From a virus (lineage: Duplodnaviria; Heunggongvirae; Uroviricota; Caudoviricetes): a DNA stretch of 14,879 nt. Position 1 is the first letter of the stretch; each line of letters starts with the position of its first letter. The stretch lies in IMG/VR virus record IMGVR_UViG_2667527789_000019, one strand, 5' to 3'. The position numbers are program-made. Of this stretch, positions 6,001 through 12,000 are shown piece after piece.

Positions 6001-9000
6001 GGATGAGCAGGTTTGCCCCTGTCAATTATGACCCCGCCAGTCTGCCGATTCCTGAACTGTACGGCTACAGGGAAAGCGACGGGCGTTATGACGAACCTGT
6101 TTTGTTCTACGTGCTGCCGGATCCGTTCGGCTCACATGTGGCGAATGGATTTAACAAGGATGCCGCGGCAAAAGTTCTTCATGAAGCCGGAATGCTGAAA
6201 AGACCATCCAGCGGTCGTGGGTGGCAAATCAGGACACCACGGCTAAAACACCTGAAAGGGGCGCGCCTGAGAGTGTACGGCCTTTTGCTGGCGCAGGACC
6301 ACGACACGGAAAGCGATTAATCTCGCGTATAGGCGATGAAAAAATGTTGTCCCAGTTGTCCCACTACGTATTAATTGATTGATTTTACTAAAAATACAAT
6401 AAAAAAGTGGGACAACATTACAGCATTTTGGGACGACATCGGGGTATTTTGGGACGACATAGCGACATTTTGGGACGACACAACGAGCGTTAATTACCCT
6501 GGCTGGTGACTGGGACAACATAAAACCCCTCATGTTGTCCCAAAATCGGCTAATGTTGTCCCAGTTTTCGGAGTGTATTTTTAATTAAATCAATGGATTA
6601 TGTGTAAGTGGGACAACTGGGACAACTGGGACGACGTGTTTTTGTATATATATAAAAAAATAAATTGAGAGGATGAATTCATGAGTGAAATTACTGTTAA
6701 AAATATCTCACCTGCGGTAGCTGGCTGGTGGGCGAAGTTCAGAGACGACGACGGCACGGAATGGTACAGCCCGATTGCTGCATGGGCGCTTTGTGAGGTT
6801 GATTATTTCGGTGCGGGGAACACCCGCCGCGAAATCTTACCCGTGCTGACCAGTGAGCTTGGTATGGGTTCGCACCCATCCGATGAAGGCTATTGCGCGT
6901 GTCTGTATCTGCCTGATGAAAAGTTCACGCTCTCAGGTGAGCAGGGGTCTTTTGCCTGGTATCCGGTGAACAGCAACAGTAATAACGGCAATTCGGGGGC
7001 TGAATCATGACGGCGAAGCACACAAAAAACCATAATTCCGTGGTGAAGTTCGTATCTGCCCGTGGCAGGCCAACGCTTTTAGTGCCAGGAAAACATCTGC
7101 ATTACTGCGATGAAAATCATATCCCGATCGTGATTGTCTGGAAGCGAACGGTATACGCCGATGTGACATGGCTGTATGACTCGCTGGCGTTGATGCACCG
7201 TGACCTGTTTGAGCGTGAAGAGTTCCGGCTGAATATTGAGGAACGGGCAGAAAAAATCTATGAGCAATATGCAGCAAACAGCAAAAGAGCCGCACGGGCA
7301 ATCACTCACCATTTCATGACGCTGTATGACCTGAAAGCAGAAGATGCAGAAAAAGCGGCATGTGATTTATTCGATATGACAATGGGTATTATCCAGGAGT
7401 ACCGGAACAGGGAGCGCAGACCATGACAGCACAGATTGCAGCTTACGGGCGGCTGGTGGACGACCCGCAGGAAAAACAGACCAGCAAGGGCACACCGATG
7501 ACGCTGGCGCGTATGGCGGTATCTTTGCCATGCAGTCAGGCACAGGACGGACAGGCGACGTTATGGCTATCAGTCCTGGCATTTGGTAAGCAGGCCGACG
7601 CGCTGGCGAGACATGAAAAAGGCGACCTTATCAGCGTGGCGGGTAACATGCAGATCAGTCAGTGGACCGGACAGAACGGAGAAATACGGCAGGGCTGGCA
7701 GGTTATCGCTGACAGCGTAATCAGTGCCCGTTCGGCGCGTCCTGGCGGGAAGCGGGGGCAGCAGGGGAAGGCGACCGAAGCACTGGACAGAGCAAAACGA
7801 CAGACCGGACAGCAGGGAAATCAGCCACCAGCGGGAGGTGATGACCCTTACGGTGATGATATTCCGTTCTGAGCGACAGGAGCACAACATGAACCAGCAG
7901 ACCACACAACAGGACCAGACAGTACGTAAACCATCACGGCGCATACCGTGGCAGCACATGACAAAGCGGCAGCGAAAAAAACCACAGACGGATTAACCGC
8001 CTGGCTGAATACTGGCCCGAGATTTTCAACGTGGAGAATATGAAGCCCCTGAAAACTGGCGTGATCCGTGATGTGCTTAAGGACGCTAAGGAACGGGAAT
8101 TGCCGATTGGTCACGGCGTATTGCGCGGCGCGTTAATATCGTATATCCACACAACCAGATACCTGAATGCTGTTATCGCTGGTGGTGCTCGGTATGACCT
8201 GAACGGGCAGCCTTGCGGCGAAGTCACGGAAGAAGATAAATCAGTCGCCAGTGAACTACTGAAACGGAGACTGGCGCAAATTAAGCAGCAGAACAGCCAG
8301 CAGCAAACAACCGGAGACGATGGTGATGATAGCTGACAGCGTGGCACAGAAACTTGAGGAGCGCGGTTTATGGCGACGTGCGGCGACCCGATGGACTGAG
8401 GTTCTTCTTCATGCAGAAACGGACAGGGAACGCGAGGAAGCTGCCAGACGTCGGGCGATATGTATCATTAAATCCCGTCGTATGCCTGAGCAGTTCGTCA
8501 CCTTTGGCGATGTGAAAAAGGCCGCTGACAGAACGCTGGCAGAGATGGGGATTAATCCACAGGATGAATGGCGAAATTACAGCTTCAGTGATGCAGGCGA
8601 CGATTTAGCGCTACCGTGATACGCATCTCATTGCCGCATTTGCTCAATTATCGCGATTCGCTATAATCACCACCGAAAAGCCGTTGATGGTGTTCTCCTC
8701 GGGCAACTGGAGCCCGACTGAATGAAGCCATTCAACGGTTTTTCGGCACTCATTCCGGTGTATCTGATCCCACACATCGGGATGAGTGAACGACGAAAAC
8801 ATCACGGTGATTTCGTCATGCCGCGATAAGAATGTTCCCCTTTGGGCAACTGGAGCCCTCTGTGCAGAAGGTTATCGCGGTCAGGTTGTGATAAAAACGC
8901 GCCTCTTTGAGCAATTGAAGCTCACTGTAAAGCGGCTTATCACAGCAGGCTGTAGCGGGTGCTCATCTCTGGGCAACTGAAGCCCTCTGTACAGAGGCCC

Positions 9001-12000
9001 GTTACGGCTGACCCTGAATGATTTCGCCCCGTGCAATTGAAGCACCCAGCGGAGTTATTCAGGGTTTTTTATTGCCCGTCCACCAGCACCACATCTGTAG
9101 CATTGATGCGTATACATTCGCCGTCAATTGCACCATTCCGGCCCTCACCGATCCGCAGCGAGAGCATATAGCCAGACGGCGGGAAATATGCCTTGCGAAC
9201 TTCAGGATGCTGTAAATAAGACTGTTGACGATATGGGAATCAGACGGGATCGGCGACATTACGGGTTATGGAAATAACAGCCAGGTAAATTGGTGAATAT
9301 ACGGCAGGCTGCAATCAGAGCCGAACATAGCGGCCTCCGTCACCATTATCAGACAGTAGCGGTAGTCCTTCCATCACAGCAAAATGCTACCCACTTCACA
9401 GCCCCTTGGAAGCCTCTTCGATGGGGTGAAAAATCCCTGAAAAAATGCGCAAAAAACTGCGCAAAAAAGTGCGCAAATCGATCATAAAACCGATCACAAA
9501 ATCGATCACACAGACAAACAGAGCAAAGCCAGATATGACGCGGCTTGCAGGGGGAAAGGCCACCGGAAAAAGTGCGCAAAAAAATGCGCAAAACGAAACG
9601 CAACAGCCGCGCAAAACGAAACCGATACGCGATGATCGAAAAAGCGCGCAAATTTACCGGATTCGGGTAAGCAATTTTGCCTGATTTGGGCAAAATACGG
9701 TGACGCCGTAACAGTGACATTGACACCAAAACAGTGACACACAGGAGGGCCGATGACCGAACGTTCACCAACAGAGATAATTCACGGGATTATTGAAGAG
9801 CAGGAGGAACGCGAGTTAATCCTCATGATTGAAGAGCAGAGAGAACGCCAGCGCAAACAGGAGGCCACGCAGCCGGACAGCGTGAGCGCTGAAAATCAGG
9901 CTGATGTGACGTGATGGTGTCGAACTGAGTAGCTTTAAGCGACTCTGTGACTGGTTTTAAACGAGTCGCAAAAAGAGCCGGAGAAAAACCACGAATCTGG
10001 GGTTTTTTCTAAGCACGCTGTACACGGTGGAACATATGGTGGTCAGGAGACGGCAGGAGCAACGCCAGAACGCGCCCCCGTACCAGTGGCATAAGCCGGA
10101 GCGGTTACGGCGGTAACTTGTTGATTAAAAGGCGGCTCAATTCTGAGCCGGGTAGCTGACGGCGTTAACTGGCTGATATTGTTACAAAGCTCATTTTTGA
10201 GCTTTGGCCTAACCTACTGATATTTTCGGAAACCTCAATTTGAGGAGACCGCAAACGCAAAATTGCGCTGGCTACATTCCTCACTTCTGAGGACTGTTAA
10301 CAAGCTGGCTGAAAGACAGTCACAAGCTACGAAATTTTCGTAGTTTAACTTTCATCCAGTGCATCCCTGAATTACGGGTATGTAACCACAGCTATTACGA
10401 GGTGATTGTTGATGCGTGATATTCAGCAGGTTCTGGAACGCTGGGGAGCGTGGGCGGCAAATAATCGCGAGAATGTGACCTGGTCATCCGTTGCCGCAGG
10501 ATTTAAGGGGATTATTCCGGCAAAGATAACATCACGCTCACAGTGCTGTGACGATGATGCGATGGTGATATGCGGGTGCATAGCCCGTCTTTACCGGAAC
10601 AATCGCGATCTGCATGACTTGCTGGTTGATTATTACGTGTTGGGGGAGACGTTCATGGCGCTGGCACGGAAACATGGGTGCTCTGACACCTGTATAGGTA
10701 AACGCCTTCACAAAGCGGAGGGGGTTGTTGAAGGCATGTTGATGATGCTGGATGTGAAGCTGGAGATGGATCGGTATGTTGAGCGCGATTCAGTGACGGC
10801 ATAACGCGCATAAAAAAACCGCAGTCATGAGGAAACTGCGGTGGAGAAATACGGCTTGCCAATCAATCATGAAAAACGTAATCGCCTGATAATTATGCCA
10901 CGAGACAAAGGACGGTGCACCCTGAATGGTCATAATGACCACTCAGACCATCGAGGCAACCATAACGAACATCGTTACAGTTGGAGCTTTTACCCCGTTG
11001 GGGGAAAAGGTGCATACCTGAATCATCATTATGGTGATCAAGGGCATGTAAAGCCCACCAGCCTGATTAAAGGTTAACCGGAAAAAGCCAGGTATGGAGG
11101 GAGTGACTAGCCACGAACAAGCCGGACACCACCAGCAGAAGGTATTATGATTTTCGTAATACCTTTAGCAAAGCGTGAATCATCATTACCGTAGGGATGG
11201 TCATAATGACCACACCTTCCCCCACCGGAACAAGGAAGGCTGGCTTACGAAAATTTCGTAACCCTCCCCAGCACAATGTATTAAATAATCACTACAGGCC
11301 ATTGATTAAACTTAATTATCGCGAATCGCGAGAATTAGCCCCGCCGGAACAAGGAAAGGGAAATTACGAAAATTTCGTAAAATCCCCCCACATCTCCCAC
11401 GGTTGCCCGTTAAGTGCAAGCGCACAGGCACGACCTCATTAACCAGTTACCAGCGCTCACGCTCAAACATCCACAGCAATGGGGATAAATCGCACTCTGG
11501 CGCAATGTTCACTATCGGGGCGAGCATTCACCGGAAAACGTCATACAGGCTTACAGGCGGCTTAAAATTCGATGGGCGGAGGACCGGATGGGAATCGGGA
11601 GACCTGGACAAAAAGTGCAGGCCTCCATGACACGGTCAGGACAGTTTGTGTTTAACCAGAATATTTAGCGCCTGTATTGGGGCTTCGTGGAGCTCCCGCA
11701 GACATTCAGGGTCAGTAACATGTTCCTGGTATCTTGTTTTCTCAAGTAACAAGCGGTGCATATGCAGCATACGGGCAAGAGCCGCGCACACCTCCTCAAA
11801 TGCGGTATCCCGCTTACCGTCACTGTCAGAGCCACAAAACAGCGGTACAACCTCCACGCCGTCGCTGTGGGCCTTTAGCCAGGCATCAACCACGGTTAAA
11901 TCATCGGTGAAGAACCACGCACTGTTAGCGCTGAATCGCATTTTCCAGGCTTCCGGTACTGGTTGCGGGGAGTATGAATATGCTGGTGGTATCTTGTCGT

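Follow-up and report, generated by a model that had tools for sequence, protein, structure and literature searches.

Five tandem hairpin modules on a phage satellite from Shiga-toxin-producing Escherichia coli and their counterparts in giant phage genes

The stretch of DNA analysed here, IMG/VR virus record IMGVR_UViG_2667527789_000019 (14,879 nucleotides, Caudoviricetes; hereafter the window), is a phage satellite found in Shiga-toxin-producing Escherichia coli, of the type known as phage-inducible chromosomal islands (PICIs). On its plus strand, it carries a promoter-like element followed by five tandem hairpin modules (M1 to M5; 8640-9072). Sequence comparison indicates that these modules are copies of a phage antisense small RNA (sRNA) gene of the EcOnc36 type, which lies within a giant gene of Shiga-toxin (Stx) phages. 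The favoured reading, to which a probability of about 0.4 can be given, is that the locus is a satellite non-coding RNA operon made of five stand-alone paralogues of this phage gene, which would serve as mimics acting on helper or competitor phages. The apical hairpin shared by the modules is a widespread and previously undescribed structured RNA that is dual-coded with a linker of polyvalent proteins.

The hairpin locus and its structural constraint

The locus opens with a sigma70-like promoter at 8640-8667 (TTGCTC at 8640-8645, a 16-nt spacer, and TATAAT at 8662-8667), for which transcription is predicted to start near G8675. It is followed by M1 (8673-8746), which has its apical hairpin, GGGC-AACTGGA-GCCC, at 8701-8715, a run of five Ts at 8739-8743, and a minimum free energy (MFE) of -41.3 kcal/mol (z = -6.0). 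Further downstream are M2 (8820-8881), with the apical hairpin GGGC-AACTGGA-GCCC at 8844-8858; M3 (8885-8946), with GAGC-AATTGAA-GCTC at 8909-8923 (MFE -24.1 kcal/mol, z = -4.3); M4 (8948-9009), with GGGC-AACTGAA-GCCC at 8971-8985 (MFE -31.2 kcal/mol); and M5 (9010-9072), with GTGC-AATTGAA-GCAC at 9031-9045 (MFE -32.8 kcal/mol, z = -7.1). M5 includes the putative operon terminator, with six Ts at 9065-9070. All five modules lie on the plus strand, and in each of them an outer stem of 10-18 bp surrounds an apical stem of 4-6 bp and a 7-nt loop. The motif GCAAYTGRAGC has exactly five matches in the window, all on the plus strand (at 8703, 8846, 8911, 8973, and 9033), while at least five matches were reached in only 2 of 200 whole-window shuffles, where they were unclustered. 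Taken as a whole, the RNA at 8668-9075 folds with an MFE of -187 kcal/mol (z = -9.8).

A promoter and a T-run occur together only at M1. M5 has a T-run alone and M2 to M4 have neither, so these three modules would depend on read-through. The terminators of M1 and M5 were missed by a terminator scanner because its loop limit is 8 nt. Two strong hairpins separate M1 from M2 (8747-8788 and 8792-8818, plus strand; MFE of the block 8747-8818, -32.9 kcal/mol, z = -4.6), and had no place in an earlier note on the window that was made from the sequence alone. They are specific to the island, being found in 114 E. coli genomes, always together with the island and with no phage counterpart. The array itself is present in 113 genomes.

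In most other respects, the earlier note described the locus well. Two terminators with inner hairpins (now placed after M1 and M5), five inner hairpins with an AAYTGRA loop, and the neighbouring ProQ/FinO-like and PerC-like genes are all present, with small corrections to the coordinates. Its description of a strong sigma70 promoter holds in part. The TTGCTC-16-TATAAT element is there, is invariant in 9/9 aligned island variants, and has a perfect -10 box, but 'strong' overstates it: the -35 box has three of six consensus matches, which is why a consensus promoter scanner did not list the element. The note did not recognise the arrangement as a described system, and Rfam scans with both gathering and E-value thresholds likewise returned nothing relevant at the RNA locus.

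The note also took the differences between the stems, which stay paired, as a sign of selection on structure, and the comparison of 11 island variants (84-100% identity) agrees. Across 21 distinct island copies, apical pair 4-18 is GC in 17, UA in three, and AU in one, and pair 5-17 is GC in 14, UA in four, AU in two, and UG in one. Neither pair is ever unpaired, and the observed covariation score was reached in 0 of 500 shuffles. Many one-sided changes within modules remain paired via G·U, and the differences between TGTGATAA/TTATCACA and CGCGATAA/TTATCGCG in the outer stem of M3 are paired changes. For 20 of 27 module variants, the plus strand folds more stably than its complement (mean difference, -4.6 kcal/mol). 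Across the island variants, the hairpins are not covered by any conserved reading frame, and a coding open reading frame (ORF) was dropped as an explanation for that reason; one variant (L268) has lost one whole module, with four left, plus a plus-strand ORF. Because of the compensation in the apical stem, the bias towards the plus strand, and the lack of a conserved ORF, it can be concluded that the island copies are under structural constraint without coding, on the plus strand.

Counterparts in phage giant genes

In a search of E. coli genomes and phage records, pieces of the locus match a single site in a giant gene ('LPD5/LPD38', 2,780-2,810 aa) of short-tailed Stx phages, always in antisense. 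The phages with this site are 933W, Sp5, the O104:H4 Stx2 phage, Stx2-86, AU5Stx1, and POCJ13. M2 is identical at 60 of 61 positions to the site in 933W, Sakai Sp5, and the O104:H4 Stx2 phage, with the sole mismatch in the loop. M1 has 93% identity over 71 nt to the giant-gene site of locus L216 and matches 63 of 69 positions in a prophage of strain G8, M3 has 90% identity over 40 nt to AU5Stx1-type phages, and a 38-nt core of M4 is 92-95% identical to POCJ13/L246-type phages. At the Stx-phage site, the apical hairpin does not vary and its 5' flank hardly does; a T-rich run lies downstream. Three phage lineages have outer stems that are unrelated yet paired (CGCGATAA/TTATCGCG, GCCGTTGATGG/CCATTCAGCGGC, and CCCTGA/TCAGGG). 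Among the array-bearing genomes listed, each has two to six places that match, whereas in most of them the island-specific spacer occurs once. This implies that these genomes also hold phage copies.

The sense strand of the apical hairpin reads GGG CTC CAA TTG CCC, and thus encodes the peptide GLQLP. The loop positions Y and R correspond to the third-codon positions of Leu and Gln (GGG CTY CAR TTG CCC), and loop variation is confined to these two, which are the synonymous positions open to the phage target CTY CAR. GLQLP-like peptides can still be read in minus-strand frames of the island modules, and in some variants the loop is damaged (AACTGA, AACGGGA) or the closing pair is lost. These traces could be taken to mean that the modules are inert debris, namely functionless, decaying giant-gene fragments acquired by recombination. 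This explanation is very improbable, given that the five copies match the extent of the hairpin unit and include no part of the flanking gene, stand in one orientation behind a conserved promoter, and are kept in 113 genomes with paired changes.

One of the phage sites coincides with a known RNA. In O157 Sakai, the site runs from 1301611 to 1301550 on the minus strand of NC_002695.2, inside ECs_1242. EcOnc36 is an RNA of Sp5, annotated on the minus strand at 1301433-1301515, with an intrinsic terminator nearby, and was recovered in 5/5 Hfq data sets obtained by cross-linking and analysis of cDNA (CRAC) (Tree et al. 2014, Table S2, PMC4104026). The offset between the old and new coordinates, measured at AsxR, is +137/138, which places EcOnc36 at 1301571-1301653, so that it overlaps the hairpin in its 5' half. 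In a 2021 review, the target and function of EcOnc36 are given as unknown. EcOnc36 and M2 are alike in strand, hairpin, and T-run, with the 60/61 identity noted above at the Sp5/933W site. EcOnc36 differs from the locus described here in being a single copy antisense in ECs_1242, whereas the window carries five stand-alone, diversified satellite copies, and it has had no assigned target or function and no described family or structure.

The apical hairpin is far from confined to these phages. A two-motif pattern search of IMG/VR gave mostly unrelated hits, which were set aside; an exact scan for GGGCAATTGGAGCCC gave at least 120 matches. Among the matches listed, 58 of 74 distinct contexts place it antisense in long ORFs in the GLQLP frame, a long ORF being one in which that frame is open for at least 300 codons (mostly 1,000-3,800 aa). 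At least 48 distinct phage contexts have the apical 15-mer on the antisense strand of a giant gene, and an outer stem encloses the apical hairpin in all 48. The mean number of base pairs around it is 20, compared with nine when the flanks are shuffled, and median identity of the 5' flank is 31%. Transcription signals accompany the structure. Of the 48 contexts, 58% reach an upstream promoter score of 9/12 or more, versus 6% elsewhere and 2% on the opposite strand, and a T-run lies 15-52 nt downstream in 85%, versus 8% in the control. The -10 box starts 36-39 nt before GGGC in 24 of the 48, and the island promoter keeps the modal distance of the phages, its -10 box starting 39 nt 5' of the apical GGGC. 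In 42/48 contexts, the RNA of the antisense strand folds more stably than the sense RNA. Rfam has no family for the apical-hairpin RNA.

The position of the hairpin within the giant proteins is also consistent. It lies 12-15 residues past the MuF_C domain (PF18819), which is matched in 933W with E 2.7e-18 and in 17/17 diverse giant-protein segments preceding GLQLP. MuF_C is a BECR-fold domain of polyvalent proteins, predicted to be an RNase or RNA-binding domain (Iyer et al., PMC5512222). The apical 15-mer is identical among phages that share only 20-40% protein identity in this adjacent domain, and the conservation of the RNA at the nucleotide level appears to dictate the GLQLP peptide. A mosaic boundary of the giant gene coincides with the hairpin in 933W (L125 6880-7000) and in all other Stx phage types; the side encoding ...ILYPEDIRKGPYY... 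is nearly identical among Stx lineages and the MuF_C side is divergent.

Modules have been duplicated and mobilised more than once. Some giant genes hold two tandem modules, with GLQLP motifs 23 aa apart (L286 3410-3650, L299 1260-1500, L095, and L357 7973-8053), which points to tandem duplication of the RNA unit inside coding sequence as well. In the second module of L106, a GAGC/GCTC stem keeps its pairing and the peptide changes to ELQLL. A stand-alone module in L097 (~9560-9680) lies about 1.4 kb 3' of a P4-alpha-like primase-helicase gene, and its core is near-identical to the giant-gene module of L303, L310, and L374, so a second type of satellite has captured a phage module. Three tandem modules occur at 800-1010 of L271 (PDWJ01018797.1), a small Mob_Pre/Rep3 plasmid, between mob and rep and on the opposite strand, with outer stems unrelated to those of E. 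coli. Further stand-alone copies occur in L277 and L295. The window has no MuF_C-containing giant ORF by Pfam, so its copies are likewise stand-alone, as in L097, L271, and L277.

The location at a mosaic boundary, with one flank ~100% conserved and the other divergent, raises the question of whether the element acts as DNA. It might be a breakpoint for module swapping in the giant gene, similar to the conserved motifs of polymorphic toxins, or it might form single-stranded DNA hairpins for priming or replication of the satellite. The island does encode a primase and a single-stranded DNA-binding protein (SSB), and the number of modules varies by inter-module recombination, as in the four-module variant. 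Still, a DNA-level element is improbable. Strong enrichment of the promoter-like element and T-run is seen on just one strand, the asymmetry of G·U-type changes favours the antisense-strand RNA (42/48 phage contexts and 20/27 island modules), RNA of the same strand has been recovered on Hfq, and the likely iteron origin lies elsewhere, at 9436-9653. Two related candidates were set aside. A pac/cos site was dropped because the signal is strand-specific, and the terminase genes of 933W are about 25 kb from the hairpin site. An attP site for integration of helper-embedded PICIs (HE-PICIs) was dropped because the published HE-PICI targets are other late genes.

Possible action on phage giant genes

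On the favoured reading, the phage gene would be a promoter-hairpin-terminator unit placed antisense in the gene for a giant polyvalent virion protein, with its apical hairpin antisense to the GLQLP codons. M1 would be a complete mini-gene, giving a predicted RNA of ~70 nt, and read-through would produce a transcript of ~400 nt that includes the spacer hairpins and M2 to M5 and ends at the M5 terminator. Acting in trans, the modules would affect short-tailed Stx phages, whether resident or incoming. Their RNAs would be antisense to the giant-gene mRNA of several lineages, M1 matching the G8 type, M2 the 933W type, and M3 and M4 their respective types in part. As M1 and M2 are antisense to this mRNA, pairing would be expected whenever both RNAs are present. 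It would begin at the apical loops, with a YUNR motif on the island RNA, and may lower the amount of injected polyvalent protein via duplex cleavage or a translation block. Hfq is a possible helper because EcOnc36, the Sakai phage RNA, was recovered on it, and the FinO-like protein could assist where its gene is intact. Both the pairing with giant-gene mRNA and its consequence are predictions made from sequence; of the mechanisms considered, antisense pairing is the most economical and the most likely.

Several points weigh against this reading. Transcription of the island locus is deduced from its sequence, and the -35 box is weak. The mapping of EcOnc36 to the Sakai site depends on the offset derived from AsxR. 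None of the sampled phage loci has a counterpart to the outer stem of M4 or a full-length counterpart to M5, which leaves M1, M2, and part of M3 as the modules for which full antisense pairing is expected. The island loops never have the sequence AATTGGA, which is the most frequent loop in phages; contacts between island loops and those of most phages would therefore contain a C·A or A·C mismatch, and the apical-stem changes GAGC, GTGC, and TGGC in the island lower complementarity to the invariant phage sequence. Nor does antisense action account for the identity of the apical 15-mer across phages whose adjacent domains have diverged so far. Lastly, the phage sample was chosen by the exact 15-mer and says nothing on the prevalence of the hairpin among MuF_C genes.

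The main rival explanation addresses some of these points. It holds that the apical hairpin is a ligand, pseudo-substrate, or inhibitor of the MuF_C (PBECR) domain, and that the array is an orphan RNA immunity cluster against an injected effector, that is, a defence. Phages may, under such a model, make the hairpin to silence MuF_C in the producing cell or to protect lysogens. The domain is described as a predicted RNase or RNA-binding fold (PMC5512222), is matched in all 17 segments before GLQLP, and ends only 12 residues ahead of the hairpin site in 933W. A protein ligand would suit the pattern of conservation, in which 15 apical nucleotides are identical despite 20-40% identity of the domain while the outer stems are free to vary, and the apical hairpin, with its stem of 4-6 bp and 7-nt loop, is similar in size to an anticodon arm. 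Also in its favour, the second module of L106 keeps its GAGC/GCTC pairing at an amino-acid cost (ELQLL), M5 keeps the apical hairpin without complementarity to any sampled phage, and stand-alone copies persist on a plasmid and a satellite without the giant gene.

Nevertheless, a role as MuF_C decoy is doubtful. Binding or cleavage of the hairpin by MuF_C is presumed, and the activity of the domain here is only predicted. Such a role does not call for outer stems in M1 and M2 that are nearly identical to those of particular phage lineages, and the binding of EcOnc36 to Hfq fits a base-pairing sRNA at least as well. A more far-reaching version is also unlikely, if conceivable: the hairpin could be the first RNA to serve as immunity partner to an effector domain that phages inject, a dual-coded sRNA that binds and silences MuF_C/PBECR, of which satellites, plasmids, and lysogens would gather arrays against superinfection. 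Such arrays would then be an RNA analogue of the clusters of orphan immunity genes known from polymorphic toxins.

Other roles for the hairpin were considered and dropped. A CsrA-type sponge does not agree with the GAA loop variants, in which GGA is gone. Strict mimicry of a tRNA T-loop or anticodon fails because the closing pair and U33 do not fit, and a -1 frameshift signal on the sense strand fails because the A-run abuts the stem without a spacer.

The analysis connects three subjects that had stood apart: EcOnc36, an orphan Hfq-bound RNA of Stx phages; the giant polyvalent proteins that are injected by many phages; and the satellites of pathogenic E. coli. At their intersection is a widespread structured RNA, absent from Rfam, that lies antisense in a protein-coding linker, and satellites have repeatedly captured this phage hairpin RNA and multiplied its copies. 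Should the array lower the amount of the Stx-phage polyvalent protein or neutralise it, this would represent RNA-based interference between satellite and helper, and could affect the spread of Stx phages. It would also offer an experimental handle on the role of the giant proteins and of MuF_C.

Island context and comparison with known systems

The window has the PICI-type feature set, with an integrase, AlpA, a primase/replicase, and a PerC-like gene, no structural or lysis genes by Pfam, and, in its near-identical counterpart, a flanking tRNA gene. PerC genes are typical of Gram-negative PICIs (PMC11773190). The satellite backbone (1-7872, plus strand), as assigned by Pfam, comprises an integrase (1-1254), AlpA (1798-2001), a Rha/Icd-like gene (2066-3451), a DUF4222 gene (3890-4150), a DUF927 primase (4182-6320), and SSB (7423-7872). 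Satellite status is based on this gene content, the tRNA flank, and a comparison with PICIs already described from E. coli, and induction and packaging are presumed. A near-identical island in strain 2015C-3121 (L001) adjoins tRNA-Gly. The two islands are otherwise 99.5-99.8% identical; in the Rha/Icd-like region, where window 2555-3310 corresponds to L001 4872-6711, the window is missing ~1.1 kb, and the two diverge past window position 12495. The 2015C-3121 genome has two copies of the island-specific spacer.

Downstream of the array, a 128-aa minus-strand gene without a Pfam hit (L002 3471-3857) converges on the M5 terminator in other island variants, and the window keeps only a 66-aa remnant of it (9059-9259, minus strand). 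Six TGCGCAAAAAA-type repeats with a 12-bp phase, in two clusters, lie within 9436-9653, and three AAATCGATCA repeats, also with a 12-bp phase, at 9475-9508. The terminator scanner takes the repeats at 9436-9653 for minus-strand terminators; they are probably the iterons of a satellite replication origin. A lambdoid Q-family antiterminator gene (10406-10804; PF06530, E 2.5e-50) lies ~1.3 kb 3' of the array, and its product could act on helper late promoters.

Directly 5' of the RNA locus is the PerC-family gene (8320-8619, plus strand; PF06069, E 7e-29), preceded by the ProQ/FinO-domain gene, which is split by a frameshift (7890-8336, plus strand). The frame that begins at ATG 7890 stops at 7994-7996, and the FinO frame is open from 7962 to 8336. 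The ProQ/FinO ORF at 8031-8336 matches PF04352 (E 5e-19) over profile positions 24-108 only. An extra A is responsible, with A7 at 7975-7981 compared with A6 in intact 155-aa homologues, and the frameshifted protein loses the first 23 Pfam positions. Four E. coli genomes that match at 100% share the A7 state, which could mean that the gene is a pseudogene or that the run is a slippery site subject to phase variation. The gene is intact in most island variants.

The earlier note had proposed that the FinO-domain protein is a chaperone with the hairpins as its cognate RNAs, a dedicated pair for island immunity or attenuation in the style of FinOP, P4 CI RNA, or P1 C4 RNA. The gene lies 300 nt upstream of the RNA locus and is intact in most variants, and M1 and M5 end in a GC-rich stem with a U-tail, the generic shape of a FinO-domain ligand (review, PMC9977716). 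Inheritance does not follow this proposal. A protein profile search found 80 FinO-bearing island loci in IMG/VR, of which two have the hairpin array, these being the two near-identical closest relatives. In islands at ~50% identity, ordinary terminators and other genes come after FinO and PerC, a FinO-alignment scan of genome contigs gave only loci of E. ruysiae and Serratia oryzae, both without the hairpin motif, and a locus search by PerC recovered only the same two array-bearing islands. The array and the FinO-like gene are therefore not co-inherited across islands, and since the gene is also frameshifted in the window and its identical copies, the link to FinO is weak. The modules, moreover, stem from a phage gene and not from an island target. 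The analogy with P4 CI and P1 C4 fares no better, as there is no C4-type hit in Rfam, and the locus is not an operon leader, the next gene being convergent and leaving nothing to attenuate. A dedicated FinO partnership is thus unlikely, and together with the DNA-level and debris explanations it ranks as less likely than the decoy model.

Among described systems, the plasmid antisense pairs FinP/FinO and FopA/Inc share with the locus a stem-loop antisense RNA, a terminator hairpin, initiation by loop-loop contact, and a FinO-domain gene nearby. They differ in that the target of the island RNAs is not in cis on the same element, that RNA and FinO-like gene do not co-occur across islands, and that the gene is frameshifted. 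The sRNAs AgvB, AsxR, and StxS of enterohaemorrhagic E. coli (EHEC) prophages are likewise short, Hfq-bound prophage RNAs with a conserved 3' hairpin, but they have no sequence kinship with the modules, occupy the PR' moron site, and target host sRNAs or mRNAs.

Type III toxin-antitoxin systems reportedly carry ToxI arrays, of which a phage is said to have made a 'pseudo-ToxI' mimic. In both cases, a mobile element has structured RNAs in tandem between a promoter and a terminator, and phages have a single related copy. ToxI repeats are identical 36-nt pseudoknot units, whereas the modules in the window are hairpins of 60-74 nt with differing outer stems, and no type III toxin gene follows the array on the same strand, the next gene being convergent and without a Pfam hit. 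A further parallel comes from the Vibrio cholerae satellite PLE, whose sRNA SviR is said to regulate transcripts of the helper phage ICP1. SviR is reportedly a single trans-acting sRNA with partial complementarity, and not an array of helper sRNA copies; what the two would have in common is a satellite sRNA aimed at the expression of helper-phage genes.

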